From NCBI RefSeq assembly GCF_046524175.1, contig NZ_JBEFZF010000002.1:107304-171303 (forward strand): a stretch of 64,000 nt of DNA. The letters are read 5' to 3'. The stretch is from Spongiivirga sp. MCCC 1A20706 (lineage in GTDB: Bacteria; Bacteroidota; Bacteroidia; Flavobacteriales; Flavobacteriaceae). Positions within the stretch are counted from its first letter, which is position 1. Each line of letters opens with the position of its first letter. The notes beneath the pieces are model-generated. The model searched no databases. It was not told the DNA's origin and worked only from the letters and a program-made list of their open reading frames with translations. Positions 11,225-28,577 of this stretch are shown in pieces. Made by a program: the position numbers and the translations under genes.

Positions 11225-11251
11225 TAAATAAAGTTAGATAATTAATTAAAA

Positions 11252-12910: not shown

Positions 12911-13222
12911 GACAATTGTTTTTATGGTTGACTGTGTAAAACTATCTGTGAATCAATGATTAAAACAAAAAAATGTCGTGAATGACACCACAAATGACGT
13001 GAGTGGTATTAAAGAAATAAGAGAGGCTTTGTCTAATATTTTTTTTACAAACTTTTTGAGAGAAAGATGGATTTATAAATAAATCATTCTTACTATTTTT
13101 TAAAATAAATACTTAAAATCAGTAAGTCTTGTCTTCTGACATAAGAAACTGCTAGTAAACAAGAAATGCGTATTTTCTGAATATAAGTAGTAAGTTTACA
13201 TCTGTTCGGTTAATAGGATAAA

Positions 13223-13810
13223 ATGATTAAAAAAGGTAAAATGGATATAGTTGCAGGTGTATTTATATTAGTTGGCACTGCCATTGGGATTTGGGCTAAT
13301 GAAATAAACAAAAGAGAATCTGATAATCTCGAAAAAAAGAATAGTATACTTAGAAAGGAATTAAAAGAAATTTCTGAGGAAAATCTTCGGCTTTCAAAAA
13401 AGATGGAAAACTATGTAGAGTCATCAAACTATTTTAATAAAACTAATTTCTCTTATTTAAAAAAAGATTTCCCTTTGGGTTATACAGTTGTTAAGCAGAA
13501 TGAGGATTTTGATGATTTCGTTCAAGCTTTTGGCGAACATAGAGACTATGAATATTATGGCTCTAGAATATATCGTGATAAGGAAACCCAAGATTATTTA
13601 ATTGTACTTAAAGATTTTAAAATTAATATTAATGGGGTATCTATCTCGGGAGGAGAAACGGGGGTTAAAATTGATCCGGATAATTACAAAGACTATCAAT
13701 TACTTATGCCTCAACAACCTCTTTTAGATGTTAATATGGTAATACTAATGATCGATAGTAAACAAAAGTATACATACGCAATCGGTTTAATACCGAAGAT
13801 AAATAAATAG
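13223..13810 (+). CDS. Hypothetical membrane-anchored protein
   Basis: ORF with an N-terminal TM helix and a coiled-coil segment. No recognisable domain. Confidence 0.45.
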   Translation: MIKKGKMDIVAGVFILVGTAIGIWANEINKRESDNLEKKNSILRKELKEISEENLRLSKKMENYVESSNYFNKTNFSYLKKDFPLGYTVVKQNEDFDDFVQAFGEHRDYEYYGSRIYRDKETQDYLIVLKDFKININGVSISGGETGVKIDPDNYKDYQLLMPQQPLLDVNMVILMIDSKQKYTYAIGLIPKINK

Positions 13811-13845
13811 AATATTTAATATTATTTGGAAGTATGCGTTTAAGT

Positions 13846-15330
13846 TTATTTAAAATCCAAAATCCGAATACACTCATTAATTCTTCCTTCAAGAACTTTC
13901 TTATGTTGCGGATATCCAATATAAAGTTGTTTAGCTATTTCTGCTTTTTCCTTTGCTAACCTGAGACTTTTATTTTTGTTGGATCTCATATAAAGTAAGG
14001 CAAAAGCTAAATAAGAATCTGCTAACCTAGCCGCAGAGTTGACATCAGGTCTTTTGCTATTAATATTAGTTAGAATTTCTATAGCATCTTCGTAAAAAGT
14101 TTTTGCGTTTTTATAGTCATTTAGATCAGTATGAATCATACCTAAAAAATGTAGATTATTTGCATATCCAACCTTATCAAACGTGCTTCTGAGAGGTAAT
14201 ATTTGCTTAAAATATTTGTCAGATTGTAAAAAAAACGATTTAGCTTTCTTAAATTCCTTATTTCCTTTAATTACAATAGCGTAACTAGATAATATTGCAG
14301 CGTATCTTAATTTGTATATATATTCAGATTTATTGGGATAATGATTTAGTATTTTTTCTGCTTTTTTAAAATATACATCTACTAATTCATAATTTTTCTG
14401 ATGACCAAAATGATTTATTGAAGATATAATAGTTGTCATTAGTTCACTAAAATATGTGTTGTTTTTTTTGTAGGCTTTTTCTTTTAGTTTTAGTGCATTT
14501 AGAAGATAATCTTCCTTATTTGTAGCAATTTCAAATTCTATATTTGGGTTATTTAAAAGCGCAAATATATTTTGATTTATTGCCCCTAATTCCGCATCAT
14601 ATCCTTTATTATTATTTTCTTTTTTTAATTTATTATAAATATCTATCGCCTTTTGATAATTATGGAACGATTTTTCACCTAAACCTTTTGTCCTGTAAAA
14701 TATACCTAAATCCCTTAAGGTTTCCGCTTCATTTGCTAAGAGAAAGTTATCCTTATTAGAAATTTTACTAAAGGATGCTAGGGATTTTTTAAGATATGGT
14801 TCAGGATTTCTTTTAGTAGAAGCTAACCCTTGTAGAAATATATGTCCAATATAAGAGTTAGCGATTGCAATAATTTTATGGTCAAAAACTTCCTTTAGAA
14901 CAACTTCAAAAGAACTCAAAGACTCATTATACTCTTCTGAGATAAAATGAGCTATTGCCTTTTGAGTATTTGAAGCATTTTTGGATTTGGATTTTTCGAG
15001 AAATAACTTCAATCCTTTTATATCTAAGTTATATTGATTTTGTATATATATTTCAAATGCTTCATCTGGGTTGTTTATATCTACATCATTTTCTTTGAAA
15101 TATCTTGCTAACCCTAGAAGGGGCTTTAATTCTTTAAGAGTTTTGTCTTGTTCTTGGTTTTTTGTAATACCATTATTTCGATATAAAAGTCCCGCAACAG
15201 CTGCAATTACCACACAAATAAAAATAATCCAACTTAACATTTTTTGATTTTTGCTTGAATTCATAGACACAAATCTAAATAAATTGTTATTAAAATAGGC
15301 ATACAATTCGGTTGCCAGAAAAGTTGACAA
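13846..15330 (-). CDS. TPR-repeat protein with N-terminal membrane anchor
   Basis: TM WIIFICVVIAAVAGLLY followed by multiple degenerate 34-aa TPR-like repeats (..AIDIYNKL.., ..AEKILNHY..). Confidence 0.6.
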   Translation of the reverse strand: MSTFLATELYAYFNNNLFRFVSMNSSKNQKMLSWIIFICVVIAAVAGLLYRNNGITKNQEQDKTLKELKPLLGLARYFKENDVDINNPDEAFEIYIQNQYNLDIKGLKLFLEKSKSKNASNTQKAIAHFISEEYNESLSSFEVVLKEVFDHKIIAIANSYIGHIFLQGLASTKRNPEPYLKKSLASFSKISNKDNFLLANEAETLRDLGIFYRTKGLGEKSFHNYQKAIDIYNKLKKENNNKGYDAELGAINQNIFALLNNPNIEFEIATNKEDYLLNALKLKEKAYKKNNTYFSELMTTIISSINHFGHQKNYELVDVYFKKAEKILNHYPNKSEYIYKLRYAAILSSYAIVIKGNKEFKKAKSFFLQSDKYFKQILPLRSTFDKVGYANNLHFLGMIHTDLNDYKNAKTFYEDAIEILTNINSKRPDVNSAARLADSYLAFALLYMRSNKNKSLRLAKEKAEIAKQLYIGYPQHKKVLEGRINECIRILDFK

Positions 15331-15361
15331 GCTATTAATAGACTGTAAGTAAAGAAATTAT

Positions 15362-15392
15362 GGTCCATGGTTCGAGCCCATGTGGGACCACA
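15362..15392 (+). repeat. Direct repeat of the last 30 nt of tRNA-Met (attachment-site-like scar), followed by a diverged copy of the tRNA terminator
   Basis: ggtccatggttcgagcccatgtgggaccac is identical to 9757-9786. A further ~45 nt is near-identical, including the terminator hairpin at 15400-15432. Confidence 0.85.
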
Positions 15393-15399
15393 CTATTAA

Positions 15400-15432
15400 A
15401 AATCCAATCTAACTCAATAGATTGGATTTTTT
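15400..15432 (+). terminator. Rho-independent terminator (diverged copy of the tRNA terminator)
   Basis: atccaatctaactcaatagattggat hairpin followed by tttttt. Confidence 0.6.
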
Positions 15433-15642
15433 GTTTAAAATAGAAAGCGCCAGTATTGCTACTGGCGCCAACTTGAGTAAGACAGGGGAACTGCAGTTTA
15501 ACCAACCGCATGATAGATCATGGTAAGCGGAATAAGCATCAACATTGCAACGAGCAATACGTTTAATAATCTTACAAAATTTAAAAATCCGATTCGGTAG
15601 AATGTGTTTAACGTGTTCATAATAGTATGTTTTAAAAAGTTA

Positions 15643-17589
15643 TTATTGTCCTATTTGGTTAAATGATGATGTGTCGATTGCATTAGGGTTAGAGGCTTCA
15701 ATTTGAAAAATAGCATCGTTAAAATCGTTGTCTCCGTTAGGTACTGAAATGTCTTCGAATGCAATGACCGTAGACTGACAGGTTTGATCGTAAAACAGAA
15801 TACTTTGCTGTCGTCCGCTTAAATTAAAATTGATGTCGGTGTGTTGAGAATAATATCCATCAGTGATACTTCCGTTTCTCCATCCGTTGGCGATCAGGAA
15901 AAATCCAACTACCGTACCTGATTCAAAACTACCTAGTAATCGCATTGTATTACCTCGAATGAGTCCGCCACCGGATCCTTGTGCCGAAGCATTTGGAAAT
16001 ATGACAGTTTTATCCAGGTCATTTACACTTGCCGGAGGATTATCCTGATTATAGGTATAGTAGCCTAGCACATTTTTATACCCTGCGCCTTCATCAATAA
16101 ATGTTAAGTATAGATCGGTTTCTTCACTTATATATAATTCTTTTACTGGGTTTGTAAAGTACTCGGGATGTGCTTGCATCGCATTTTGTCGTTCCGGAAG
16201 AACATTTTGGTAGATATTAGGGAGTAATGTACTGCACACTTCAACATCTTCTTCCATTCCGTCTGGCACTCCTTTTTCATCATAGGTAGTAACCGTTTTG
16301 TATTCGTCCTTTTCTCTTTTGCGCAGAATTTTGAATCCGCCACCACCTTTGGCAACAAAAACCCATTCACCATCAGCCATGATAAAGTTAGCAGAGGCGT
16401 CATCTTCCTGCATATCCCAGAAAAATACCGGATTTATTTCTTCGCCTTCGACCGTAGGGTGCTTCGCAATAGCAATACCGTCTGCACCATTGGCCATATA
16501 GATATAGTCATTATCGGTAGTAATTCCGTTTGTATTACCAACAACTAGCATTAACCCTTCAGATTCATTTAAGATCGTGCCAGAATTGACATCAACATTG
16601 GCCAAACCATACTTGCCCTTAGCGACATATAGTTGATTACTATGTATTGGGGAAAATTCCATCGTAGATTTACCGCGATATGTTTCTACTACATTTTGAT
16701 GAAAAATGCTGCCTATAGGAAAGCTAGTGGTATTCAATGCATCATTTACATCGGCAACCCTTATAAAAGCCTCATCTCCTGTGATCAGACTTGCTACTTT
16801 CGAGTTGTCGGAATTAAGCGCCAAGTACTTCGCATTGGCATATACTTCGTGGTCTAAGGCATTGAGATTATCCTTATTTAGAATAACGGTACCACCATGT
16901 GTTTTTCCCGAAGTGATATAGATATAATTATCAGTAGAAGCAATACCATTTGCTGAGGCAGAAACTCCTGAGTTTTCAAATACATTTGACAAATTAACCC
17001 GTTTGAAATCGGAGTTGAACTGCCCATTTGTTGTTGTGAGTTCAAATAATTGAGCTCCGTGCACATTATCCGACATGGCAGTCCAAATTTTCCGCAGACT
17101 ATTTGATCCTTCAAAGTCAGACGTCAACGCATTGACATCGGCATTATTAAAGTAAACCTGACTTATTATTTCAGGAAAATTAGGATTGGAAAGATCAATG
17201 ATTTCAACCGCACCCTTGTGTAAATCACCTTGCTTGTGATAGCTTACATATGCCTTGTCGTCAGCCAAGGTAATATGTGTCGCGCTTAGGGTAAACCCTC
17301 CAAGAACCAGAGGGTCTACTTCTGCAACATGCTCCCAGAAGTAATTTTCTTGCGCACCATTTACTTTAGCGGTTGAAAATTTTCCGGTCTTTGTTTTTAC
17401 AACTGGTTTAATAGTGGCAGTTCTATTAATAAAACGCAGCCGTTTTGTTAACTCATTTCTGTCATTGTTTACCGAAAAAGGATTTTCATCGATTGGTGCT
17501 TCAATTAATTCAGCTGTATTTTCTTCTGTACTACAACTTAGGAATCCTATAATAAGGACTATTTTAAATAGTATTTTTACTGTCTTCAT
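15643..17589 (-). CDS. Lipoprotein with LVIVD-type beta-propeller repeats and a C-terminal DUF4114-like region
   Basis: Lipobox IGFLSCS. Repeated ..YIYITSG.., ..YIYMANGADGIAIAK.. motifs. C-terminal GFFLIANGW...DGYYSQ...NDFNDAIFQIE. Confidence 0.55.
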   Translation of the reverse strand: MKTVKILFKIVLIIGFLSCSTEENTAELIEAPIDENPFSVNNDRNELTKRLRFINRTATIKPVVKTKTGKFSTAKVNGAQENYFWEHVAEVDPLVLGGFTLSATHITLADDKAYVSYHKQGDLHKGAVEIIDLSNPNFPEIISQVYFNNADVNALTSDFEGSNSLRKIWTAMSDNVHGAQLFELTTTNGQFNSDFKRVNLSNVFENSGVSASANGIASTDNYIYITSGKTHGGTVILNKDNLNALDHEVYANAKYLALNSDNSKVASLITGDEAFIRVADVNDALNTTSFPIGSIFHQNVVETYRGKSTMEFSPIHSNQLYVAKGKYGLANVDVNSGTILNESEGLMLVVGNTNGITTDNDYIYMANGADGIAIAKHPTVEGEEINPVFFWDMQEDDASANFIMADGEWVFVAKGGGGFKILRKREKDEYKTVTTYDEKGVPDGMEEDVEVCSTLLPNIYQNVLPERQNAMQAHPEYFTNPVKELYISEETDLYLTFIDEGAGYKNVLGYYTYNQDNPPASVNDLDKTVIFPNASAQGSGGGLIRGNTMRLLGSFESGTVVGFFLIANGWRNGSITDGYYSQHTDINFNLSGRQQSILFYDQTCQSTVIAFEDISVPNGDNDFNDAIFQIEASNPNAIDTSSFNQIGQ

Positions 17590-17595
17590 AGTTAT

Positions 17596-17820
17596 TTAAT
17601 TTGAGGTATTTTGTATATGACGAATCATGGTTTGTTGTGCTTTTACTTGTGCCTTTTTCAATGTTGGTTGAAAATCGGTTTCGTCTCTTGAAACACGAAT
17701 CATTTGATTGCCTTTGTATACAATCCACCAAAATTTTGAAGGTTTTAAAAATTCAGCTTTAAGGTGATATCCGTCTCCTGTTTTGACGTGTTTCCAGTCT
17801 TTATTTCCTGTCCATTGCAT
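17596..17820 (-). CDS. Small hypothetical protein (74 aa), immediately upstream of the lipoprotein gene
   Basis: ORF only. Trp/Lys-rich. No recognisable motif. Confidence 0.35.
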   Translation of the reverse strand: MQWTGNKDWKHVKTGDGYHLKAEFLKPSKFWWIVYKGNQMIRVSRDETDFQPTLKKAQVKAQQTMIRHIQNTSN

Positions 17821-17936
17821 AATACTTGGGGTTTAATTACAATGATAAATTTAGCGTTAGATTACCCTTTAGTGAGTTGTTTTTCGGCGGGTGGACGTTT
17901 GCTGTAGATGGATGGAAAAAAGAAGAGGATTATTGG

Positions 17937-19256
17937 TTATAAGCCTGCTTTCTTTGCTTGGATAGAAGATTTGTAAGGGTTCCATGTATCTTCAAAAGAC
18001 CGCTTAAAAAAGAATTCTTTATAGTAGGCAGCTGTACGAACGATTCTTAAGTATGTGCCAGTATAAATGGTCATCAAAGAAACATATGGCCATAAGTACA
18101 GTTCTTCTTTTCTGCGTTCTGAAAAAACGTAAATACTACACATTTGCACATAGCTCATTACAAAATATAGGGTAAAGTTCATGGGAATGACAAATTGCAG
18201 TTGACTGCTGTAATTAACAATAATATCAATAATGTAAAACCACCATAGTATATCAAGTACTACATTGTAAAATACATTTTCGGCAAGCGAAAAGAAGGTC
18301 GACCAGTTGAAGTTAGCGTTGGGGAAGTATACATCTTTGTGTTTGCGAACTCTAAATCGTATGATCGATTTATCCCAGCGCAATCGTTGTTTGGTTAATA
18401 CTTTAAATTTGGAAGGCGCATTGGTTAAGCAAATAGCACTGGGCTCAAAACAAACTTTATAACCTGATTTTCTAATTTTAACGGTAATGTCTCCGTCTAA
18501 ACCGGGGCCAATATCCCAACCTCCTATAGCATCAATGACATCTGCTCTAAAAGCGCCAAATGCTCCTGAAATAATTTTATAAATTCCTAAATATGAGGTG
18601 ATGATTCGGCCTACTGAAACGGTTTTTAGATACTCAATTGCCTGCAATCTGGCGCATAAACTTTCCTTATAATTTCTAACTTTTACATTGCCACCCACGG
18701 CTGCAATTTTTTCGTTCATGTAAAAAGGAACCAATACATTTTCGATAGCATCATAATCAAAAGAACAATCGGCGTCAAGATGTACAATGTATTTGCCGCT
18801 ACTATATCGCAACGCTAAATTGGCAGCAGAGGCTTTACCTCCTCGCATTTCGTTTCTAATAAATTTATCGATTAAACCTAGGCGTTCTAAGTTTTTACCG
18901 ATAATTGGGGTGTCATCGTCAGAGCCATCATCAACAATAATGAGTTCAAAGTTTGAAAAAGTTTGTTCTGCTAATGATTTTGTTAATTTGTAAAGATGTT
19001 TTCCTTCGTTCTTACCCGGAATTATAACTGAAACAAATGGATTTTCAAGACGTAATAATTGCCTGGCTTTTTCGAATTTTTTAGCGCGCTTTTTTCTGTT
19101 AATCCAAAATATTAATGCCACTATATAATCAATAATGATGTATCGGGTAAACTCAAACAAAATGAAATACCAAAAAACCCGAATGAATTTTGGTAACCCT
19201 ACTTCATTCCAATAGTTAATATATTCAGGTACTATATTTTCTAATTGTAATGACAT
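17937..19256 (-). CDS. Processive family-2 glycosyltransferase (membrane-embedded polysaccharide synthase; PgaC/NodC/HasA-like)
   Basis: VSVIIPGKNEG...LIIVDDGSDD (DxD) ...QRLRW (QxxRW processivity motif). TM helices at both ends. 439 aa. Confidence 0.85.
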   Translation of the reverse strand: MSLQLENIVPEYINYWNEVGLPKFIRVFWYFILFEFTRYIIIDYIVALIFWINRKKRAKKFEKARQLLRLENPFVSVIIPGKNEGKHLYKLTKSLAEQTFSNFELIIVDDGSDDDTPIIGKNLERLGLIDKFIRNEMRGGKASAANLALRYSSGKYIVHLDADCSFDYDAIENVLVPFYMNEKIAAVGGNVKVRNYKESLCARLQAIEYLKTVSVGRIITSYLGIYKIISGAFGAFRADVIDAIGGWDIGPGLDGDITVKIRKSGYKVCFEPSAICLTNAPSKFKVLTKQRLRWDKSIIRFRVRKHKDVYFPNANFNWSTFFSLAENVFYNVVLDILWWFYIIDIIVNYSSQLQFVIPMNFTLYFVMSYVQMCSIYVFSERRKEELYLWPYVSLMTIYTGTYLRIVRTAAYYKEFFFKRSFEDTWNPYKSSIQAKKAGL

Positions 19257-19260
19257 GCAA

Positions 19261-20643
19261 TTAGTTGAATTGTTTTAAAATATCATCAATTGTTTCACCT
19301 GATTTAGGCTGATGTGTTTGGATATTAATAGCTAACAACTGCTCTTGTAAATTATCACCTAGAAGTTTTCCTAAGTTATATTGAATGGTTTCAAGGCGTT
19401 GAGGTAGTGGTTCTTTTGTGTCGGGCAGTAATAGGTAATATGAATTATAAGCGTCTGCGGCCAAAACATCACTTGGTAATAAATAGGATTGAATAATTGT
19501 TCCTATTTCCTTTACTAATGCCTTTTTTGTGTCATCATCAAAATGACCTAAGCGGTTGTTTTCAAAACGGATAGAAGCCATTTGACTTGTTGCTTTACTT
19601 ATAGTTATTCTTTTTAACTCTTGTCCTGCAATAATTTTAAACAAAGACAAGGTCATTATGCCATCGGGAGAAATAGATATTTGGCTGTTTTGTTGCACAT
19701 TTCCTAGTAACCATTCTTCTCCTAACGATGTGATACTGTATGTGCCAATGGTCTTTTTTATTAAGGCGGAAAGTTCATTTTCCGTTTCGCAATCAATGCA
19801 TTTAGCCACCATATTCGGTGTTTGAAATTCATGGTTACAACAGTTGCAGTTATACATGGATGATGGCTTGTCATAATCGATACCAATATGCCTTAATTGC
19901 TTATCGCACTTAGGGCAAGATAATCCCTCTTTTGTTTTAAAGTCTTTTTCCGGGGCAACATGGGCACAAACGAAGTGATGTACAATGTCTTGTGCTTTGA
20001 TATCGATACTATCACACTTAGGGCAGGTTTCAATAAAATTCAAGTAATTACCGTGACAATTTTTACATAAATGAACATGGTCATGTAGTTTCATCGTCAG
20101 ATGACCAGATGCCACGCTTTTTTCAAGCATTAATAATTTAGGCAGTACTTCCTCCTTTTTATAAAAAAGATCAATTAATGGAAGGATATACCCAATTAAG
20201 CTTGTTCTATCTGCAATCGGTTCTATTGGATGATTTCTGGTGAAAAGAAAAGCCAAGATTTTGTATTGCAATTGGTCATCGTGGGCTCCATTTTTTGTAA
20301 GCGATATCCTTTTAAGACGCTTGCTGATCACGTCAATACGGTTGACAGCTATTGGGAGCTGATCGATATCAATATATCCATCAGTATGTATGCCAACAGT
20401 CTTATGTAATTGGCAAGTAGCGTTTATAAAAATGGGTTTTAACGCAATTGCCAAATCGGCGTTTTTGCGAATATGAAAGACCAAGTCTGTTGCATGTTCT
20501 TTGTTTTCCGTGTTGATAATAACAGCATCGATATAGGTTAAAGGCTCATGCAGCAGCACCGATAGGTGATCAACTTTTAGCATGGTGTAACCTGAGAACT
20601 GAATCTTATTGGAACGGTCGTTATGTCGTAGAACATTTAACAT
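19261..20643 (-). CDS. Cys-rich protein with five Cys pairs (zinc-ribbon-like); possible TackOD1-like output/regulatory domain
   Basis: CKNC...CPKC...CPKC...CNCC...CIDC within about 90 aa, flanked by non-membrane domains. 4-nt spacing to the GT2 gene. Confidence 0.6.
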   Translation of the reverse strand: MLNVLRHNDRSNKIQFSGYTMLKVDHLSVLLHEPLTYIDAVIINTENKEHATDLVFHIRKNADLAIALKPIFINATCQLHKTVGIHTDGYIDIDQLPIAVNRIDVISKRLKRISLTKNGAHDDQLQYKILAFLFTRNHPIEPIADRTSLIGYILPLIDLFYKKEEVLPKLLMLEKSVASGHLTMKLHDHVHLCKNCHGNYLNFIETCPKCDSIDIKAQDIVHHFVCAHVAPEKDFKTKEGLSCPKCDKQLRHIGIDYDKPSSMYNCNCCNHEFQTPNMVAKCIDCETENELSALIKKTIGTYSITSLGEEWLLGNVQQNSQISISPDGIMTLSLFKIIAGQELKRITISKATSQMASIRFENNRLGHFDDDTKKALVKEIGTIIQSYLLPSDVLAADAYNSYYLLLPDTKEPLPQRLETIQYNLGKLLGDNLQEQLLAINIQTHQPKSGETIDDILKQFN

Positions 20644-20676
20644 GACTTGGTCTATTGTCAGGGGACTAGTTTAAAA

Positions 20677-22041
20677 TTAAAGCGACATATATACGCTTGC
20701 AGGGATTTTATCTTTCATATTCCCTTTAATATCAAAGATGATGGCGTCGTCTTTTGCATTTTTCAACAAATCGAAATAGCCTAAGTCTTGATAATCTGTA
20801 TGATCAACGGCTAGCACGATCGCATCAAAACGTTCAGAAGTGCTTTTAGTAAGTTCAATCCCATAATGCTGCTTTACTTCATCAGCATTAGCCATATAAT
20901 CTTGTACGCAAACTTGAAATCCTTTTTCTTTTAGAGCAAGGCAAAGTTCAGCAGCTTTTGAGTTACGAATATCATTGACGTTTTCTTTAAAGGTGATTCC
21001 CTTTACCAGAATAGTGTGTTGCTTTTTTTGCAAACCGTTTCTATATACTCGTTTACTAATTTCGCTTACAATATGTGGAACCATACTTTCATTGACTTTG
21101 CGAACTTGTTCAAGAAGTTTGGGTTCGATTTTATGCTGCTTTGCTTTATGAATTAGATAATAAGGATCTACACCAATACAATGACCTCCGACTAAACCTG
21201 GATAGTAGTGATGAAAATTCCACTTACTTCCTGCAGCTTCTAAAACTTCTTTTGTATTAATATCCAATTTGTTAAATATCTGAGAAAGCTCATTCATTAA
21301 ACCGATGTTTACATCTCGTTGAATATTTTCAACAACTTTTGCGGCTTCTGCAACTCGAATGGTAGCTGCCCGGTATACGCCCGCTTTCACAGCACTTTCG
21401 TAAACATCAGCAATAACTTCTAAAGCTTCTGGAGTACTTCCGGAAACGATTTTCTTAATACTTGTAAACGTATGTTGTGTATCCCCTGGATTAATTCGCT
21501 CAGGAGAGTATCCGATGGTAAAGTCTTCATTATATTTTAGGCGTGAAATACGCTCTAAAATGGGTACGCACACTTCTTCTGTACAGCCCGGATATACGGT
21601 AGATTCGAAAACAACACAATCGCCCTTTTTTAAATGACGAGCTACGGTAGCAGTAGCAGCCATTATCGGTCTTAGGTTCGGTTTTTTTAAATGATCTATA
21701 GGAGAAGGTACCGCTACAATATAAAACTTTGCGCTAGCCAGTACCTTATCGTTTGCACTAAAAGCAATGTCTTTTCCTTTAAATTCGTCAGCGGCTAGTT
21801 CGCCACAGGGATCTTGATGTTGTGCAATTTGAACAACTTTTTCTTCGCTAATATCAAAACCTACTACCTTAAAGTGAGCAGCCATATGTACCGCTAAAGG
21901 AAGCCCTACATATCCCAGACCAACGACAGCGATTTGTTCTTCTTTGTTTTTTAGTTTTTTGAAAAGATCACTTTGCTTGTAACCAAGTGTAGGTTGATCA
22001 AAATCATTTACATGTAGGTTGTATTTTAATTGTGTGTTCAT
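20677..22041 (-). CDS. UDP-N-acetyl-hexosamine 6-dehydrogenase (TviB/WbpO/Cap5O family nucleotide-sugar dehydrogenase)
   Basis: IAVVGLGYVGLPLAV Rossmann motif typical of the UDP-HexNAc dehydrogenase subfamily. GGHCIGVDPYY catalytic-Cys region. Confidence 0.85.
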   Translation of the reverse strand: MNTQLKYNLHVNDFDQPTLGYKQSDLFKKLKNKEEQIAVVGLGYVGLPLAVHMAAHFKVVGFDISEEKVVQIAQHQDPCGELAADEFKGKDIAFSANDKVLASAKFYIVAVPSPIDHLKKPNLRPIMAATATVARHLKKGDCVVFESTVYPGCTEEVCVPILERISRLKYNEDFTIGYSPERINPGDTQHTFTSIKKIVSGSTPEALEVIADVYESAVKAGVYRAATIRVAEAAKVVENIQRDVNIGLMNELSQIFNKLDINTKEVLEAAGSKWNFHHYYPGLVGGHCIGVDPYYLIHKAKQHKIEPKLLEQVRKVNESMVPHIVSEISKRVYRNGLQKKQHTILVKGITFKENVNDIRNSKAAELCLALKEKGFQVCVQDYMANADEVKQHYGIELTKSTSERFDAIVLAVDHTDYQDLGYFDLLKNAKDDAIIFDIKGNMKDKIPASVYMSL

Positions 22042-22169
22042 AATAGTAAGATTTAATGGGTTATAATTTCTGATACTAAATTAGTTTTGATATTGTTGTA
22101 AAGAGCTGCTTTTTAGTTTGATAGAAGACTCTTGTAGATGAATGGTCGTTATCCTTAGACGGATGGTTT

Positions 22170-23222
22170 TTAGCGGAAAGTCTTGTTTAATGAAATGGAA
22201 ACGTTTAACATATGATAAGCTCCCCAGCGATCTTTCTGTTCCGCTCGCAAAGGGATTATTTCTGCAAGAATATTTCGTTCTGTGGGCTCATACTTTTTCT
22301 GGAATTCTATAGGAGCCGTATAAGTGGATACATATAATTTATTAATAACCCCTTTTTCTTTTGTTTGATCCGGAAATAGTATATCGACGATGTCCCCCTC
22401 GTCAAGATGTGCCGCGTCTTTAAGATCAAAATATCCTTTTATAAATACTTTTTCGGTGTTGTGTATGGTCATTACCCGCTCTCCTTTATAACAAGACTCT
22501 TCTCTATTTTTGTGAATTTGACCAATAATACCATTAATAGGAGATAGGTAACTGCTTCTATGGCTGGAATAACCACCAGTACTTAGGTCGAAAATAGTAG
22601 GTTGTGTTGCGTGATTATTGTTGTTTCTTAATAGGGAAGTCTGGGAAAGCAAAAAACGTATCTCGTTATTAAGCAATGAAATCTTGTTTTTGGCAAGTAG
22701 AATTTGATTCCTAATCCCTTCTAATTTTTCTTTGGTATACACATCTAATAACACCAGTTTTATCATCTTTTCTAGTTGTTGATCTAACTGATTTGTATGA
22801 TTGTATAGGTTGTTTCGTTCTATTCTCTTTTGGGCTATTTTGAAAGCTAAATCCTGCAAGGCATCATTTTTTTTCTCGTTTTTCCCCTCAGATCGTAATA
22901 AGACAGCTGCTTCATTGTCAAACTCATTTTGTTGATATGAAAATAGGTTCTGATCTATTTGTACGGAATCACCTTCTTGAACAGATAGTTGTTTAATCCG
23001 AATATCTTGTGTAAAATTTACATCTATTTTATCCATAACAACCATACCATTTGCTTTAACGATAGCCACTTTGGTATATAGATATTTTGCTAAGAAACCA
23101 AAGGCGATTAATACAAGAATAAAATATACTAACCTATCGAAGTTGAATTTCTTCTTCTTCACTACCGGTTCTTTAAGGGTTCGAATCTTTGCGGTTTCTT
23201 TTTGATAAGAAAATGTCCTCAT
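22170..23222 (-). CDS. HlyD-family periplasmic adaptor (membrane fusion protein)
   Basis: N-terminal TM LVYFILVLIAFGFLA, long coiled coil, C-terminal beta-barrel-like region. About 350 aa. Confidence 0.75.
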   Translation of the reverse strand: MRTFSYQKETAKIRTLKEPVVKKKKFNFDRLVYFILVLIAFGFLAKYLYTKVAIVKANGMVVMDKIDVNFTQDIRIKQLSVQEGDSVQIDQNLFSYQQNEFDNEAAVLLRSEGKNEKKNDALQDLAFKIAQKRIERNNLYNHTNQLDQQLEKMIKLVLLDVYTKEKLEGIRNQILLAKNKISLLNNEIRFLLSQTSLLRNNNNHATQPTIFDLSTGGYSSHRSSYLSPINGIIGQIHKNREESCYKGERVMTIHNTEKVFIKGYFDLKDAAHLDEGDIVDILFPDQTKEKGVINKLYVSTYTAPIEFQKKYEPTERNILAEIIPLRAEQKDRWGAYHMLNVSISLNKTFR

Positions 23223-23226
23223 GTTC

Positions 23227-24753
23227 TTATTTTTTAGAGATTAATTCTAACTCGTTTGAAATCAAGTCTTTTAAAAAAACAGCATTAGGAGTTGGTTGTT
23301 CAAATGAGACCTGGATGCCTTCTTTCTTCAGTAGGTTTTCAAAAGCACCATCTTGAAAGGTCATCTGAATACGTTGTATGTTTTTCGCTTTTAGAAATTG
23401 TAGTTGTAGTCTTTGCGAAAAAGAACTTTTTGTAATTACCACAGGGTCTAAACTAATACCTGTGTTGAATGCAACAGATGAGATAAATTGATGAATATTG
23501 GATTCCGGACTAAGCTCGATAATATGAGAAACAATCGTATACAATTGTTTTTTTAGCTGTAATACATTTTCTATAATATCATATTGCTCCTTAGTATACT
23601 GTAACAAAAGTAAACCGCAGTTATAGGTATTTAGTTCTTCCTTTATAATTTGGGTGATGGTTTTTCGCTGTTGGATGATCAACCATTTTTTATGAAGGGT
23701 GTATAGATCGTTAATTTTTTCTTGATGTGCATTTAAATAAGTGACAAGCTGATTCTGTTTACCCACTAATCGATCATCTTCTTGAGCAGTAGCTTGTTGT
23801 ATTTTTGTTTGAATAATTTTTTTCCGATTGTTAAAACGAATAGGAGCACTGAATCTGGCACCAATTAAAGGGCTACTAAATTGCCTCGTTATGGTCTCCG
23901 TCCAGTTATAATTAGCATAAATCGAAAACTTAATGTCTCTGAATGCTCGATTTTTTAGCTTAATAATGTGTTGCTTCCATATTTTTTTGTCTTCGTTTTT
24001 AGGCGATTTGAAAATATCATCTTTATTTAAATCAATCTTTATTAATGGAAGTTTCTCATTTAAGAACAATGCAGGAATACTATCTGCTACATGATCTTGA
24101 TAAAATTGTATTTGCTTAGATTGTTCTCTACTGTTATATAACTCATTAGATATTTTGATAACCTCTTCTCTTTTGATCATTTTTTGAGAGTAGAGTTCAT
24201 TTAAAATGTCAAAGTATTTTTCTAGAAATTTACTTTTGCTTGTATAATGGTTTAAGAGTTCTTGATTAATAGCATAATTGTAATGCAACCGAAATTGGCG
24301 CCGCCAAATAATTTTGTTTTCTCGCTCTAAAGCGTCATTCAATAGTTGTTTTTCGAGTAGCGCGGTTGTTGCTTTCGTTCTATTTGCAAAGAATCCGCCC
24401 TTTAATATATCCCATTCTAATTCCGCATTAAATCTAGATACCGTTATGTTATTTGTTTCATCATCAAGAACTCCTTGGAAATTGCGATAGCTATTAGCTT
24501 TTATTTGCAAGCCCCAGTCTTTTTTGTATTCATTTGATTCTAAATCTTTTATTCTTATTTCATGCCATGTAGGACTAATGGAATCAAGCATTTTGAAAAT
24601 ATCAAAGTTGATATCTTCATATGAATAAGGAAAATGAAGGAGCGTGTTTGCATCCTGATAAATAACATGACTCTTCATCAGCAAAGAGTCAATTTCTTGG
24701 GGTTTAGCTAATGTAGAGACTAGTAAAAGTGCTATGAAAATTGGGGCTTTCAT
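23227..24753 (-). CDS. TolC-like outer-membrane factor
   Basis: Signal peptide. Repeated helix/strand architecture with ILKGGFFANRTKA, compare the TolC LFDGG motif. Confidence 0.55.
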   Translation of the reverse strand: MKAPIFIALLLVSTLAKPQEIDSLLMKSHVIYQDANTLLHFPYSYEDINFDIFKMLDSISPTWHEIRIKDLESNEYKKDWGLQIKANSYRNFQGVLDDETNNITVSRFNAELEWDILKGGFFANRTKATTALLEKQLLNDALERENKIIWRRQFRLHYNYAINQELLNHYTSKSKFLEKYFDILNELYSQKMIKREEVIKISNELYNSREQSKQIQFYQDHVADSIPALFLNEKLPLIKIDLNKDDIFKSPKNEDKKIWKQHIIKLKNRAFRDIKFSIYANYNWTETITRQFSSPLIGARFSAPIRFNNRKKIIQTKIQQATAQEDDRLVGKQNQLVTYLNAHQEKINDLYTLHKKWLIIQQRKTITQIIKEELNTYNCGLLLLQYTKEQYDIIENVLQLKKQLYTIVSHIIELSPESNIHQFISSVAFNTGISLDPVVITKSSFSQRLQLQFLKAKNIQRIQMTFQDGAFENLLKKEGIQVSFEQPTPNAVFLKDLISNELELISKK

Positions 24754-24810
24754 ACAGCCAAACTAACCCCATAAAGTTGTTTATATCATATTAATCGATA
24801 GAAGGGTAAA

Positions 24811-24858
24811 TTAGTGTCGACGAGAGGAGTTTTTAGTTCGGTGATTAGAAATTATATT
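24811..24858. promoter_or_regulatory. Conserved upstream box (ttagtgtcgacga-N-agtttt-N-tcg-N-ga-taNaaatta), copy 1, 60-100 nt upstream of the polysaccharide operon start
   Basis: 13/13 identity plus extended similarity to 28656-28700 upstream of the H-NOX operon. Confidence 0.5.
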
Positions 24859-24940
24859 TCAAATATTTAGGGATCAAGAGGTAGACTGCTCCCTTCCTTT
24901 GAGGGAAGGGTGTTCAATTACATTTTAATATCCTGAAGAG

Positions 24941-24983
24941 AACACCCCTCTATATCTCTCCTCAAGGGGAGACTTTAATATGG
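24941..24983. repeat. Hairpin repeat copy 2, nested in a highly structured region at 24880-24990
   Basis: Same 43-nt element as 9488-9530. Adjacent stems cccttcc/ggaaggg and gggtgttc/gaacaccc. Confidence 0.6.
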
Positions 24984-25010
24984 CGCTTACAAGGGTATTG
25001 AAAACGTATT

Positions 25011-25712
25011 TTACAACAAATTCAACCGCTTTCTAAGTTCTGGACGATTTGCACGACTCACAGGTATGATATCTTGTTTAATAAGAACGCTATTATCTTC
25101 GATATCGATAATTTTATTGGTATTAATTACGTATGATCGATGTACTTTTAGGAATAGCGTATCAGGTAGTTTTTCTTCTATTTTCTTTAAAGTCGAATGA
25201 ACAATGTAATTTTTTTGTTCAGTTTTGATATTGATATAATCCCCTTTGGCTTCGACTAAATAAATATCAGGAATGTTTATTTTAACTAAACGACGATCAA
25301 TATTCACAAAGAGGTCATTGTTATTATCTTGTTTCTCGACTGAGGTTTTTTCTTCACTTATGGTTGTTTGCTCAGCTTTTTCAATCGCCTTTTTAAACCG
25401 CAAGAGTTCAATAGGTTTTAGTAAATAGTCAACAATACAATCATATTCAAAAGCTTGTATGGCAAAATTGGCATCAGAAGTTGTTAGTATTATTTTAGGA
25501 GGGGATTTTAATGTCTGAATAAAATCAAAACCCGTAAAATCGGGCATGTGAATATCGAGAAAAATCAGATCGATCTCATTTTGATTTAGGAACTTTATGG
25601 CTTCTATAGCATTTGAAAATTCAGATACCACCTTTAATTGTGATATTTGATCACATAAATGGTTAATAATTGCTCTAGCGGTTGCTTCATCATCAATAAT
25701 TATACAATTCAT
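25011..25712 (-). CDS. Response regulator, receiver (REC) + LytTR DNA-binding domain
   Basis: MNCIIIDDE...LIFLDIHMPDFTGFDF (REC). C-terminal LVEAKGDYINIKTEQKNYIVHSTLKKIE...VHRSYVIN (LytTR). Confidence 0.85.
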   Translation of the reverse strand: MNCIIIDDEATARAIINHLCDQISQLKVVSEFSNAIEAIKFLNQNEIDLIFLDIHMPDFTGFDFIQTLKSPPKIILTTSDANFAIQAFEYDCIVDYLLKPIELLRFKKAIEKAEQTTISEEKTSVEKQDNNNDLFVNIDRRLVKINIPDIYLVEAKGDYINIKTEQKNYIVHSTLKKIEEKLPDTLFLKVHRSYVINTNKIIDIEDNSVLIKQDIIPVSRANRPELRKRLNLL

Positions 25713-25720
25713 AGTGTAGG

Positions 25721-26041
25721 TTAAAGTGTATTTAGGTAGTTTTCTATGGTATTTAATAACTTTCTAAAGCGATCATTCAAGGAGGTATTTTCATTTTTAA
25801 GGTCGTTTTCGAAGTTTTTGGCCAACACGTAACCTTTTTGCAAACCAAGAATATTGATTTTATGCTTTAGTTTGTGTACCTGTTCTGACGCTTTGTTATA
25901 TTCAGATGATTGCATATAAATAGCAAACTCAGCACGTTCTTCAGGAAATTCATTTTTCATAATATTAATGAGCTTTGTCTTGATACCTAAATCTCCTGCA
26001 GCAAGCTCATTAATATAATTAAGATTGGGTGTTTCACTCAT
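25721..26041 (-). CDS. Histidine phosphotransfer (Hpt) protein
   Basis: 106 aa. HKLKHKINILGL fits the Hpt HxLKGxxxxLG phospho-His motif. Overlaps the kinase stop by 4 nt. Confidence 0.7.
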   Translation of the reverse strand: MSETPNLNYINELAAGDLGIKTKLINIMKNEFPEERAEFAIYMQSSEYNKASEQVHKLKHKINILGLQKGYVLAKNFENDLKNENTSLNDRFRKLLNTIENYLNTL

Positions 26042-27630
26042 TTTTTAATGGTAAAGTAAAAAGTACTGCCTTCACCCACTTGCGAAGTAAGCCAAATTCT
26101 ACCACCATAAAAATCGACAATTTTTTTGACAATTGACAATCCTATTCCAGTTGAATTATCCTCATTTTCAAGACTTTGAAAAACATTAAAGATCTTTTCG
26201 AAATACTTTTTTTCAACACCTATACCGTTATCTTCAATAGAAAACTCCCAAAAACGTTCTTTTTCTTCACAGCTAATTTTGACAACGCCCTTTTGTTTGT
26301 CATTGTATTTGATGGCATTACTTATTAAGTTTTGAAAGAGCTGTTGCAGTCTAAACTCATCCCCTTGAACAGTTGGTAGCGTATTCGTTATTTTTACTGA
26401 TATATGCTCTGGTACATAAATGACCTCAATAACATCCTGTACAATCTGGTTGAGGTTAATACTATAAATTTTCTTTTCAATTCGGTCTACACTGGCATAC
26501 TCTAGCACTCCATTAATTAGTTGGTCCATTTTATCTACTTTTTTATGCAACATGTCAAAAGTAGTATTGGCTTTTTTATCGAAGACATCAGCATAGTCTT
26601 CTTGTAACCAAGAAATTAGGCTACTAATACTTCTAAGAGGTGATTTTAGATCGTGCGAAACGATGTGAGCATAATCGTTTAGCTCTTGGTTACTTTTTTC
26701 CAGATCGCTTAACAGCTGTTTTTCCTTTAGTTGTTGTTTAAGCTGTTCGCTCATGTCTTCAATAAGTGCAACCTGATACTTTATATTTCCCAAATCATTT
26801 CGTACGGCACTTACACTTGTTTTGGCCGTTAAGATGCCTCCGTCTTTTTTACGGTATTTTTTTTGAATGGTGAAATTATCAATATCTCCATTATTTAGGG
26901 CTTCCATTTTTTCTTTAGAAGCATTGTATTCATCTTTGACAGAAATGTCTTTAACCTGCATTGTATTTAGCTCATCAGCAGTAAACCCTAATAACTGTTG
27001 AAAAGCACTGTTTGTTTGTAAAATTTTTCCATGTTGTGTTAAGGCAATCCCTAAAGAAGAGTTTTCTACAATAACACTTAACTGTTTTTTTTGCTCTTCA
27101 AAAACTTGTTGATTTTTAACCTGCTCTGTAGTATCTCGTACGATACCTTGTGCGGCTATGGGCTCTTTTTTAGCGTTGAAGACTAAACTGGCATTAATTT
27201 GCACATTTCTCACCTCCCGTTGTTTTGTATATACCCTGGCATTGTAGTTGGTAAAAGCACCTTTTTTCACTAGTTCTTGAAAAGACTTCATCGCATAAGG
27301 GATATCTTGCTTGTAGATAAGACCAACAACGTTTAAAGGTTCTTTGTCAATATCATACCCGAACAGTGTTTTTGCAGCATCATTCATTTTAAGGACATCA
27401 CCAGATAAGTTCATAACCACATAGGCGTCTACAATATTTTCAAAAACACCTTGCAACTCTGAAGTTCGTTCGCTTACTAAACTTTCGAGCTTTTCATTGG
27501 CCGTTCGGAGCTCTGTTGTTAATTGAAATAGATCAGAGGCTTTTTCTTCAAGTATTTTTTCAGCTTGTTTCCTAGCATTCTTTTCTCGGGCTAAAGCACG
27601 TTTTAATATGTCTGTTTCTTTGGACATCAA
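26038..27630 (-). CDS. Soluble PAS-domain sensor histidine kinase
   Basis: HisKA H-box SHDLKSPLRSI. HATPase N/G boxes (NAIKYN..., DNGIGV, GTGIGLSIVKK). PAS-like repeats. No TM helix. Confidence 0.85.
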   Translation of the reverse strand: MMSKETDILKRALAREKNARKQAEKILEEKASDLFQLTTELRTANEKLESLVSERTSELQGVFENIVDAYVVMNLSGDVLKMNDAAKTLFGYDIDKEPLNVVGLIYKQDIPYAMKSFQELVKKGAFTNYNARVYTKQREVRNVQINASLVFNAKKEPIAAQGIVRDTTEQVKNQQVFEEQKKQLSVIVENSSLGIALTQHGKILQTNSAFQQLLGFTADELNTMQVKDISVKDEYNASKEKMEALNNGDIDNFTIQKKYRKKDGGILTAKTSVSAVRNDLGNIKYQVALIEDMSEQLKQQLKEKQLLSDLEKSNQELNDYAHIVSHDLKSPLRSISSLISWLQEDYADVFDKKANTTFDMLHKKVDKMDQLINGVLEYASVDRIEKKIYSINLNQIVQDVIEVIYVPEHISVKITNTLPTVQGDEFRLQQLFQNLISNAIKYNDKQKGVVKISCEEKERFWEFSIEDNGIGVEKKYFEKIFNVFQSLENEDNSTGIGLSIVKKIVDFYGGRIWLTSQVGEGSTFYFTIKK

Positions 27631-28166
27631 AGTCTTTTAATATTAAACCTTACTTCGGTTCCGTCTTTGGCTATATTTTCCGTATCGATACTACCTTTTT
27701 CATCAAAATGAAGAAATGTTTTGCGCATTAATCCAAGCCCAAACTGATGTAAAGCCCTGTTCGATCGGTAGATCATTATGAGGGAATTTTCTTTTTTCTC
27801 AATAATTTCAAAAGTAGGTAATTCGGCATCAGGATATATTTTCCGCACCTCTACATGAATGTGATTTTCGATAGAAGAGAGCATTTCCAAAGGATCATCA
27901 TATAAAGCGATAAATTGAGGGTAATCTCTTTTAAGAACATCAAAAAAATGTTCTCCATAAACACAGAGTAGTTGATCAACTGCAATGGAAGTATTTTTAC
28001 TTAGATTTGATACTAAACTTAGCATTTCTGCGAAATCATAAGTGCCGACAGCGGTATATATTCCTTTTGATTTAAGATCAGATTCCTGAATGAGTTGATC
28101 GACCATTTCCAATCCGAATTTATCTTCAACAAGTTCTAAAAACTCTGTAAATACAATTCCTTTCAT
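27627..28166 (-). CDS. hnoX: H-NOX (haem nitric oxide/oxygen-binding) sensor domain protein
   Basis: Starts MKGIVF. Proximal His at residue 102 (ENHIH) and the Y133-x-S135-x-R137 haem-propionate motif (IYRSNR) at the canonical spacing. 4-nt overlap with the kinase gene. Confidence 0.85.
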   Translation of the reverse strand: MKGIVFTEFLELVEDKFGLEMVDQLIQESDLKSKGIYTAVGTYDFAEMLSLVSNLSKNTSIAVDQLLCVYGEHFFDVLKRDYPQFIALYDDPLEMLSSIENHIHVEVRKIYPDAELPTFEIIEKKENSLIMIYRSNRALHQFGLGLMRKTFLHFDEKGSIDTENIAKDGTEVRFNIKRL

Positions 28167-28577
28167 TTATAATTTAATTAGTTCGTTATTTGACCAATAC
28201 GCAACAGCAATTTTTATTTTTTCCTTGTAGTCTTCATAACGTAAAGGTTTTAATATGTAGCCAGCAATTCCGATGGTATAGCATTCTAAAATATCCGTTC
28301 GGTTATTTGATGTGGTAAGTATCATAGCCGGAATATATTTTAGGGCTGCGTTCTTTTTAAGAATTTTCAGAAATTCTGTTCCGTTCATCTTAGGCATGTT
28401 AAGATCTAAAAAGATCACATCGGGGGTTTTGTTTTCTTCTTGTAAAATAGTAAGAGCCTCTTCACCATTTTTTGATAGCGTTAGATTGTATTTTATATTC
28501 ATGCTATCCAGCACTCTTTTAAATTTAATAGTTTCTATTTCATCATCTTCAATTAATAAGATCGACAGTGTTTTCAT
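28167..28577 (-). CDS. Single-domain CheY-like response regulator (receiver only)
   Basis: LLIEDDE...VIFLDLNMPKMNG...ILTTS...GIAGYILKP. Confidence 0.85.
   Translation of the reverse strand: MKTLSILLIEDDEIETIKFKRVLDSMNIKYNLTLSKNGEEALTILQEENKTPDVIFLDLNMPKMNGTEFLKILKKNAALKYIPAMILTTSNNRTDILECYTIGIAGYILKPLRYEDYKEKIKIAVAYWSNNELIKL

Follow-up and report, generated by a model that had tools for sequence, protein, structure and literature searches.

By which route would a polysaccharide leave the cell when the genes for its production encode a membrane synthase, a periplasmic adaptor and an outer-membrane channel, and neither a Wzx/Wzy pair nor an ABC exporter? The question is raised by a locus in a 64,000-nt stretch of DNA (hereafter the window) from the marine flavobacterium Spongiivirga sp. 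MCCC 1A20706 (Flavobacteriaceae; NZ_JBEFZF010000002.1, positions 107,304-171,303). Coordinates are given as positions in the window, and the locus genes all lie on the minus strand. Taken as a whole, the best explanation, which we consider probable, is an envelope-spanning synthase-adaptor-TolC polysaccharide export operon: a six-gene unit of the synthase-dependent, tripartite type, running from 24753 to 15643 on the minus strand. Its genes, in order, are:

23227-24753, minus strand: outer-membrane factor (OMF), 508 amino acids (aa), with a signal peptide and a TolC-like fold
22170-23222, minus strand: membrane fusion protein (MFP, the periplasmic adaptor), 350 aa, matching HlyD_3 (E 3.3e-5) and the EmrA/EmrK subfamily (E 2.2e-10)
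20677-22041, minus strand: UDP-N-acetylhexosamine (UDP-HexNAc) 6-dehydrogenase, TviB/WbpA-like, 454 aa, matching NF011729 TviB (E 2.2e-122)
19261-20643, minus strand: cytoplasmic partner (TackOD1) protein, 460 aa, matching PF18551 (E 7.5e-55, aa 120-304)
17937-19256, minus strand: membrane GT2 synthase, PgaC/IcaA-like, 439 aa, matching Glycos_transf_2 (E 3e-26) and Chitin_synth_2 (E 1.2e-8)
15643-17589, minus strand: accessory lipoprotein, 648 aa, with lipobox Cys19, an LVIVD-type beta-propeller-like middle and a C-terminal DUF4114 domain (E 1.5e-13)

The first five open reading frames (ORFs), from 24753 down to 17937, are separated by gaps of 4, 128, 33 and 4 nt, and the lipoprotein gene lies 347 nt past the GT2 gene. 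An earlier prediction made from the sequence of this DNA had drawn the locus as a minus-strand run of these first five genes; each of the five ORFs is exact, while the DUF4114 lipoprotein gene and a set of regulatory genes at 25011-28577 had been missed.

A conserved core of channel, adaptor, partner and synthase

A pattern scan of 185,579 species genomes returned 219 relatives, and the sequences of 80 loci were retrieved; the window proteins were mapped onto all of them, with divergent OMFs recovered by profile. An exhaustive profile search of 1.84 billion representatives yielded 992 proteins at E ≤ 1e-30. Component counts given here cover the 54 fully flanked loci, with at least 8 kb on either side. 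The genes for the OMF, MFP, TackOD1 protein and GT2 were found together in all 54, a co-occurrence far beyond chance, in Flavobacteriaceae, Saprospiraceae, Cyclobacteriaceae, Prolixibacteraceae, Balneolaceae and one metagenome-assembled genome of the Desulfobacterales; the carriers also include Chitinophaga. The dehydrogenase gene is present in 42 of the loci and the DUF4114 lipoprotein gene in 30. Both shift position between lineages and keep the same strand: the dehydrogenase precedes the OMF in Saprospiraceae and follows the MFP in Flavobacteriaceae, and the lipoprotein gene lies inside the operon (between the MFP, dehydrogenase and TackOD1 genes) in Balneolaceae and some Flavobacteriaceae. 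Of the five genes, four make up the invariant core; the dehydrogenase gene is sometimes missing and variably placed.

Clustering of all remaining ORFs in the loci revealed no further conserved family and no ABC, RND or MFS transporter. Since no other family is conserved with the core, the GT2, which is its sole polytopic inner-membrane protein, is left as the one candidate for pairing with the MFP and OMF in the inner membrane. Searches of the window between 9.8 and 32 kb and of the conserved neighbourhoods found no Wzx/Wzy, ABC exporter or PCP/OPX families, and the original prediction was right that Wzx/Wzy, an ABC exporter, PilZ and BcsB/BcsC are lacking in and beside the locus.

The OMF was identified by fold comparison only. 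In the AlphaFold2 (AF2) model (predicted local distance difference test, pLDDT, 76; predicted template-modelling score, pTM, 0.70), residues ~19-414 form a TolC-like double repeat of a beta-hairpin and very long antiparallel helices, and residues ~420-508 form an extra alpha/beta C-terminal domain. The protein had no match in Pfam, in NCBIfam, or in phmmer and profile searches of the PDB, and the OEP profile PF02321 did not match it. A 29-sequence OMF alignment used as query recovered no proteins beyond the 11 found with the single sequence. Compared by hhalign with the canonical OEP encoded elsewhere in the window as part of an efflux pump, it scored a probability of 0.9%, which shows that the OMF belongs to a separate, dedicated and highly divergent lineage. 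Across loci (L052, L059, L057 and L082 among them) its length ranges from ~415 aa in Balneolaceae, where the C-terminal domain is missing, to ~970 aa in Draconibacterium-like loci, and lineage-specific extra domains seem to have been attached to the channel. The database entry for the window protein (P0121, 483 aa) starts 25 residues after the first ATG of the ORF (window 24679-24753); this start looks too short because the longer form opens with the signal-peptide-like MKAPIFIALLLVSTLA and its Q19 is kept in homologues.

The MFP gene begins 4 nt past the OMF gene. Hydropathy places one N-terminal transmembrane (TM) helix at residues ~30-50, followed by a body of lipoyl, coiled-coil hairpin and beta-barrel parts. 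The single sequence is weakly HlyD-like; a 37-sequence profile run against the PDB matched HlyD (8dck, E 1.7e-8), EmrA (8zar, E 2e-8) and also MacA, and 35 of the 37 family members match HlyD_3. The cytoplasmic N-terminal tail is strikingly conserved, with E18, K23 and R30 nearly invariant.

In the GT2 synthase, a catalytic domain is bordered by hydrophobic N- and C-terminal segments. The motifs D109-D110, D161-A-D163, D254-G-D256 and Q290-RLRW294 are at least 98% conserved among 77 homologues, the DxD motif lying at DNA positions 18768-18776 and QRLRW at 18375-18389. The top NCBIfam model is PgaC_IcaA (TIGR03937; E 3.5e-49, 168 bits against an equivalog cutoff of 422). Alignment with Escherichia coli PgaC gives 27% identity over 368 colinear residues (E 1e-35) between proteins of 439 and 441 aa, and residues 139-329 match the hyaluronan synthase structure 8smm. 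The protein carries GT2 domains only, with no c-di-GMP (cyclic di-GMP)-binding domain on the synthase itself.

The dehydrogenase contains all three UDPG_MGDP_dh Pfam domains, a GLGYVG Rossmann motif and the catalytic cysteine of a GGHC motif. It scores 409 bits with the TviB model (below the equivalog cutoff of 592), 383 bits with the nucleotide-sugar dehydrogenase model TIGR03026 (cutoff 190), 192-204 bits with WecC-type models for UDP-N-acetylmannosamine (UDP-ManNAc) and at most 152 bits with UDP-glucose types. Because the TviB score exceeds those of the ManNAc and glucose models, we read the enzyme as a UDP-N-acetylglucosamine (UDP-GlcNAc) or UDP-N-acetylgalactosamine (UDP-GalNAc) 6-dehydrogenase. 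One predicted metagenomic protein, P0152 (669 aa), combines a complete TackOD1 protein with the UDP-binding C-terminal domain of a UDPG_MGDP dehydrogenase; this is either a genuine fusion or the result of read-through or a frameshift between neighbouring genes.

On the identities of these genes the original prediction has held up well. Its TolC-like channel is upheld by fold, its HlyD-like adaptor by the EmrA/EmrK and HlyD_3 matches together with the family profile, its processive-type GT2 by conservation of the DxD and QxxRW motifs, and its UDP-HexNAc 6-dehydrogenase by the likeness to TviB.

The DUF4114 lipoprotein is strongly conserved where it occurs (620-1018 bits across phyla). Its Cys19 is invariant, LVIVD repeats were found in 8 of 22 members, and Pfam matches are limited to DUF4114 and weak LVIVD or propeller hits; neither sequence nor profile searches found a PDB relative. 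We propose that it processes or anchors the polymer; a role as lyase or hydrolase is pure speculation. In Balneolaceae its gene stands between the MFP and dehydrogenase genes, and in Spongiivirga citrea, the closest relative, no DUF4114 gene occurs within 10 kb downstream of the GT2 gene.

Downstream of the lipoprotein gene, the operon has a probable end of transcription:

15446-15469, minus strand: terminator-like hairpin with a 10-bp stem including 6 GC pairs, followed by a T-rich tail, 3' of the DUF4114 gene

With matches inside ORFs left out of account, this is the sole strong minus-strand terminator-like site within 15300-25200. A scan for sigma-70 promoters was uninformative, with 37 sites found where 37.5 are expected; the promoter motifs of Bacteroidota are different. 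Beyond the hairpin lie genes for a TM-anchored TPR protein (13846-15330), a secreted-looking 552-aa protein without a family match (11252-12910) and, adjoining the latter, a 451-aa protein whose only domain is a C-terminal LytTR DNA-binding domain (9869-11224). In other genomes, none of these three (9869-15330) accompanies the polysaccharide locus.

The TackOD1 protein and the upstream relay

The obligatory fourth member of the core is the TackOD1 protein, identical at 100% to ABN763_04650 of strain MCCC 1A20706. It matches PF18551 with 185.8 bits (cutoff 32) and shows no TM segment by hydropathy. The AF2 model (pLDDT 87) divides it into three parts:

20314-20610 (aa ~12-110), minus strand: receiver-like N-terminal domain, from the AF2 model
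19732-20286 (aa 120-304), minus strand: TackOD1 winged-helix and multi-cysteine zinc-ribbon core, from PF18551 and the AF2 model
19264-19659 (aa ~329-460), minus strand: degenerate GGDEF domain, from the AF2 model, Foldseek and a profile

Cysteines of the CxxC/HxxC pattern (C193, C196, C207, C210, C226, C243, C246, C266, C269, C282 and C285) and the histidines H222/H223/H252 are invariant in 33 sequences. TackOD1 was originally defined as an archaeal response-regulator output domain of obscure function with 11 conserved cysteines, the pattern of which resembles the DNA-contacting zinc insert of PriA (PMC5847659). The C-terminal domain adopts a GGDEF fold, with 66 Foldseek matches at E ≤ 1e-3 and with PelD and BcsE among the hits, and a profile of this domain alone finds the diguanylate cyclases DgcR (E 1.9e-6), 3ign and GcbC. 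The catalytic site is degenerate in every family member, GGEEF aligning to AYNSY in the window protein. The RxxD motif of the c-di-GMP-binding inhibitory site (I-site) aligns to LPSD (region of residues 388-393), with the arginine lost; it is intact in 28 of 83 family relatives. The relative P0251 gives a sub-threshold Pfam GGDEF match. The original prediction had excluded PilZ or any other c-di-GMP module from the locus; PilZ is indeed lacking, and yet a PelD/BcsE-like pseudo-GGDEF protein is encoded, albeit one whose I-site arginine is gone.

A relative, P0208, carries a canonical receiver domain (Response_reg E 1.5e-19). For the N-terminal domain of the window protein, a function as a true phospho-acceptor was considered and rejected, since the aspartate that ends the third strand is not conserved: the strand reads IINTEN in the window and IIDTD, VIEAT and similar in relatives.

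The TackOD1 gene lies directly upstream of the GT2 gene in every locus with room. In the window 4 nt separate its stop from the start of the GT2 gene, and most loci have a gap of -4 or -1 nt; this overlap by 4 or 1 nt points to translational coupling.

Upstream of the OMF gene lie five regulatory genes, which by their domain content form a split phosphorelay:

25011-25712, minus strand: LytTR-type response regulator, 233 aa (Response_reg E 1.8e-18, LytTR E 1e-21), adjoining the operon in 36/54 loci
25721-26041, minus strand: Hpt-like phosphotransfer protein, 106 aa, with a weak Hpt match (E 0.0021) and an HKLK motif, in 26/54
26038-27630, minus strand: cytoplasmic PAS-PAS histidine kinase, 530 aa, with PAS, HisKA and HATPase_c
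27627-28166, minus strand: H-NOX haem sensor of nitric oxide (NO) or O2, 179 aa (PF07700 E 4.4e-40), in 22/54
28167-28577, minus strand: single-domain receiver protein, 136 aa (Response_reg E 1.9e-21), in 31/54

The H-NOX protein has the proximal-histidine region HIHVEV and the YRSNR (YxSxR) haem-binding motif, and the start of the kinase gene overlaps its stop codon. The single-domain receiver is probably a relay intermediate.

Between the response regulator and OMF genes lies a candidate regulatory site:

24790-24826, minus strand: imperfect direct repeat CTCGTCGACACT ... CTATCGATTAAT, 22 bp from core to core, a candidate binding site of the LytTR regulator upstream of the OMF gene

In relatives too, the spacer between the two genes contains an imperfect direct repeat with a period of ~21-22 bp, the geometry expected for LytTR regulators. 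The same TCGAC/TCGAT-type repeat can be seen in S. citrea, and Balneolaceae have it as CCATTCAACGAT/CCATTCACCGAT; in 16 of 34 loci the best pair of repeat 12-mers has a spacing of 21 bp. Both the assignment as a LytTR site and the preferred 21-bp spacing are suggestive only. Most relatives have a spacer of 78-110 bp between regulator and OMF genes (S. citrea has 95 bp); in the window it measures 257 bp (24754-25010), and the extra DNA contains two hairpins, TCTCCCCTTGAGGAGAGA at ~24972-24955 and CCCTTCCCTCAAAGGAAGGG at ~24910-24891. A terminator or small repeat element may have been inserted here, which would uncouple the structural genes from the regulatory ones.

Among fully flanked, non-identical loci, an intact RxxD motif occurs in 3 with the LytTR system and 12 without it, whereas the motif is lost in 32 with the system and 5 without. 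The motif and the LytTR/H-NOX system are thus nearly mutually exclusive (loci L005-L084; Fisher p 9e-6, ignoring phylogeny). A possible interpretation is that c-di-GMP was the ancestral signal for the partner protein, as it is for PelD, and that Flavobacteriaceae and Balneolaceae replaced this input by transcriptional control through the H-NOX relay. Enzymes of c-di-GMP metabolism are probably scarce in Flavobacteriia; a literature query on this point returned nothing.

A model for synthesis and export, and its alternatives

Under the proposed model, the TviB-like dehydrogenase would oxidize UDP-GlcNAc (or UDP-GalNAc) to the uronic acid form. The PgaC-like inner-membrane GT2 would join UDP-HexNAc and/or its uronic acid form (UDP-HexNAcA) and thread the growing chain through its own TM pore. 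The TackOD1 protein, putatively coupled to the GT2 at translation, would serve in the manner of PelD and BcsE as a regulatory or activating subunit, by gating or as a scaffold; in relatives with an RxxD I-site it probably senses c-di-GMP, the arginine being lost in this flavobacterial lineage. The HlyD/EmrA-type adaptor, with its single TM helix and conserved cytoplasmic tail, would bridge the synthase to the dedicated TolC-fold channel in a physical complex, and the polymer would leave there. After export, the DUF4114 lipoprotein may process or anchor the polymer, either within the periplasm or at the surface. Transcription of the operon would be driven by the relay of H-NOX, PAS kinase, receiver, Hpt and LytTR regulator, so that production would answer nitric oxide or redox state.

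The original prediction had likewise proposed export by a single synthase, an adaptor and a TolC-like duct. The linkage of the core in all 54 loci, with no other transporter, agrees with this, and export itself is what we infer from it. Its further step, that a dedicated dehydrogenase implies a polymer containing HexNAc-uronic acid, is compatible with a TviB-like enzyme in the operon; absence of the enzyme from 12 of the 54 loci leaves the step plausible, not compelled.

Several points weigh against this model. The gaps of 128 bp (MFP to dehydrogenase) and 347 bp (GT2 to DUF4114) allow internal promoters, and the OMF model was built from only 11 sequences. PgaC-like enzymes include NodC, which makes short oligomers only, and the chain length assumed here is presumptive. 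The window TackOD1 protein has neither a GGDEF active site nor an I-site arginine, making any ligand a guess, and its winged-helix region would also suit DNA binding. In 12 of the 54 loci the dehydrogenase is absent within 10 kb, so the uronic acid is not obligatory for the machinery. For the direct repeat, per-locus shuffle p-values are mostly >0.05, and the p-value of the RxxD/LytTR anticorrelation takes no account of kinship. What the analysis shows are gene identities, folds, motifs and co-conservation; the complex, the identity of the polymer, the role of the TackOD1 protein and the control by NO are proposals.

The absence of the dehydrogenase from some loci bears directly on the nature of the product. 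The polymer could be a neutral HexNAc homopolymer resembling poly-N-acetylglucosamine (PNAG) or chitin, the dehydrogenase feeding lipopolysaccharide (LPS) or capsule, or supplying a minor or priming sugar. The GT2 is highly conserved (565-950 bits) even though those 12 loci have no dehydrogenase nearby, and the closest characterized synthase makes PNAG. However, where the dehydrogenase is present, it is encoded on the same strand, with export genes on one side and synthase genes on the other, and travels with the cluster, changing place between Saprospiraceae and Flavobacteriaceae; P0152 links its C terminus to TackOD1, by fusion or read-through; and the cluster contains no PNAG deacetylase. 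We regard a neutral polymer as unlikely.

A second alternative concerns the TackOD1 protein, which could be a DNA-binding transcription factor for the operon, an atypical response regulator, instead of a synthase subunit. Relatives with canonical receiver domains would suit such a role, as would the definition of TackOD1 as a response-regulator output domain and the resemblance of its cysteines to the PriA insert (PMC5847659). Against this, its gene directly precedes that of the GT2 in every locus with room, usually with overlapping stop and start, an arrangement typically seen for partners made in stoichiometric amounts; the locus already has another transcription factor in the LytTR regulator; and at its degenerate GGDEF end the protein is like PelD and BcsE, receptors that activate synthases. 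On balance, the protein being a transcription factor appears improbable, and a subunit of the synthase remains our preferred assignment.

The length of the product raises a third alternative, namely that the GT2 is NodC-like and length-limited, with a short, possibly acidic, chito-oligosaccharide or glycolipid signal leaving by the MFP-OMF duct. The synthase does match the NodC model (E 4.6e-19), small molecules are the classical cargo of TolC-type ducts, and a signal molecule would be in keeping with the tight signalling context, which includes an H-NOX relay and a receiver-like partner. PgaC/IcaA is nevertheless the better match (E 3.5e-49 vs 4.6e-19) with full-length colinearity, no Nod-type acyltransferase or deacetylase is conserved nearby, and the precedents for GT2-HlyD-TolC assemblies export long glucans (PMC13438883). 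A short signal thus seems quite unlikely, and we keep to a polymer as the product.

The last alternative can be set against a canonical efflux system that the same window carries at 45574-61912, with its neighbouring regulators:

42581-45342, minus strand: sigma-54 response regulator and histidine kinase, beside the efflux system
45574-46932, plus strand: canonical OEP (PF02321 E 4.9e-45)
46932-48182, plus strand: HlyD MFP of the pump
48855-49559, plus strand: ABC ATPase of the pump
49736-61912, plus strand: five tandem paralogous MacB/FtsX permeases (MacB-like) of ~800 aa each, an unusual five-fold array

That the adaptor and OMF of the polysaccharide locus form a conventional efflux pump or a type I secretion system that happens to lie beside glycan genes, the GT2 product leaving otherwise or staying cell-associated, is very unlikely: although the MFP profile is nearest to the HlyD, EmrA and MacA adaptors of such systems and the OMF fold matches drug and metal efflux channels, no ABC, RND or MFS transporter occurs in the locus or in any of its 54 fully flanked relatives, the OMF-MFP pair is linked to TackOD1-GT2 in all of them across phyla despite reshuffling of other genes, and the complete pump in the window, having its own transporter and an easily recognized OMF, argues against an unrelated pump at the locus.

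Relation to known systems and implications

The original prediction had said that the locus looks like an uncharacterized secretion route for an acidic aminosugar polymer, a view that needs correction because the route has precedents. In Sinorhizobium meliloti, production of the mixed-linkage glucan by BgsA/BgsB needs TolC, disruption of tolC abolishes it, and a tripartite synthesis-export complex of BgsA, BgsB and TolC has been proposed (PMC13438883), so that the GT2-HlyD-TolC route has been shown genetically. For extracellular cellulose of cyanobacteria, tripartite export by XcsAB-TolC has been proposed (described in PMC12430437). The Bgs system resembles the present locus in its membrane GT2, its HlyD-type MFP encoded next to it and its TolC-type channel. 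In contrast to the housekeeping TolC of Bgs, which is encoded elsewhere, the locus has a dedicated divergent OMF as its first gene; whereas BgsA has its own C-terminal c-di-GMP-binding domain, the 439-aa GT2 here lacks one and is adjoined by a separate TackOD1/GGDEF-like protein. The Bgs product is a glucan, while the locus pairs a PgaC-like synthase with a UDP-HexNAc dehydrogenase, and the host phylum differs.

Xcs shares with the locus an inner-membrane GT2, a HlyD-like adaptor, a TolC-like channel and the lack of BcsB or BcsC. It differs in the PilZ domain on XcsA and in the scattering of its genes in Thermosynechococcus, and it has no TackOD1 protein, dehydrogenase or DUF4114 lipoprotein. 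The Xcs cellulose system is reportedly that of Maeda et al. 2018.

With PgaABCD and IcaADBC the locus shares a GT2 of the same length, topology and motifs as PgaC. Unlike them, it contains, in itself or in its conserved neighbourhood, no PgaD/IcaD, no PgaB/IcaB deacetylase and no PgaA porin; an MFP and OMF stand in their place, and a dehydrogenase is added. Because the synthase falls below the equivalog cutoff (168 vs 422 bits) and PgaA, PgaB and PgaD are missing, the locus is, by gene content, not a Pga/Ica system. The TackOD1 protein resembles PelD and BcsE in having a GGDEF fold with a non-catalytic active site, and differs in the TackOD1 zinc ribbon between two domains, in LPSD for RxxD and, unlike PelD, in the lack of TM and GAF domains. 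In alginate synthesis, the GT2 Alg8 works with Alg44, a partner with a HlyD-like periplasmic domain, to give a polyuronate. Alg44 carries PilZ, the precursor is GDP-mannuronic acid, and export proceeds by the AlgE porin and the TPR protein AlgK. Alginate synthesis thus differs in having no TolC-type duct, and no sequence relationship of Alg8/Alg44 to the locus was detected.

A literature search on the system (TackOD1, H-NOX in Bacteroidetes or Flavobacteria, synthase-dependent polymers of GlcNAc-uronic acid (GlcNAcA), PgaC in Tenacibaculum) found no description of it; the exopolysaccharide cluster of Tenacibaculum maritimum is a different, larger one, MARIT_2522-2537 (PMC5561996). The architecture of GT2, HlyD-like adaptor and TolC is accordingly known as a kind, and the combination found here differs from the precedents: an operon-encoded divergent OMF, a synthase without a PilZ or c-di-GMP domain, an obligatory TackOD1 partner, a PgaC-like synthase paired with a HexNAc dehydrogenase, and a DUF4114 lipoprotein. 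We put forward tentatively, as a possibility that we rate below even, the more far-reaching view that the locus represents a distinct, widespread and unnamed secretion class, in which a TackOD1/pseudo-GGDEF-gated PgaC-like synthase would make a polymer containing poly-HexNAc-uronate and release it through a private adaptor-TolC duct, control having switched from the c-di-GMP I-site to the H-NOX relay in Flavobacteriaceae. Marine Bacteroidota and Balneolaceae would be the main carriers of the class so conceived, which would number ~1000 sequence clusters at 50% identity.

Synthase-dependent systems such as those for cellulose, alginate, PNAG and Pel are central to biofilm biology. Very little is known of them in the Bacteroidota, which are dominant on marine particles, algal surfaces and fish skin. 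With the four-gene core in at least 219 species genomes and the OMF encoded together with the synthase, the debated GT2–HlyD–TolC export model becomes directly testable. The obscure TackOD1 domain gains a concrete, testable role beside a synthase, which would, if true, be the first function for the domain. The locus would also tie H-NOX sensing of nitric oxide to matrix production where the usual c-di-GMP link appears eroded. If the product is a poly-HexNAc-uronate, such an acidic polymer of aminosugars would be unusual, ecologically relevant to particle aggregation and host colonization, and a possible material.

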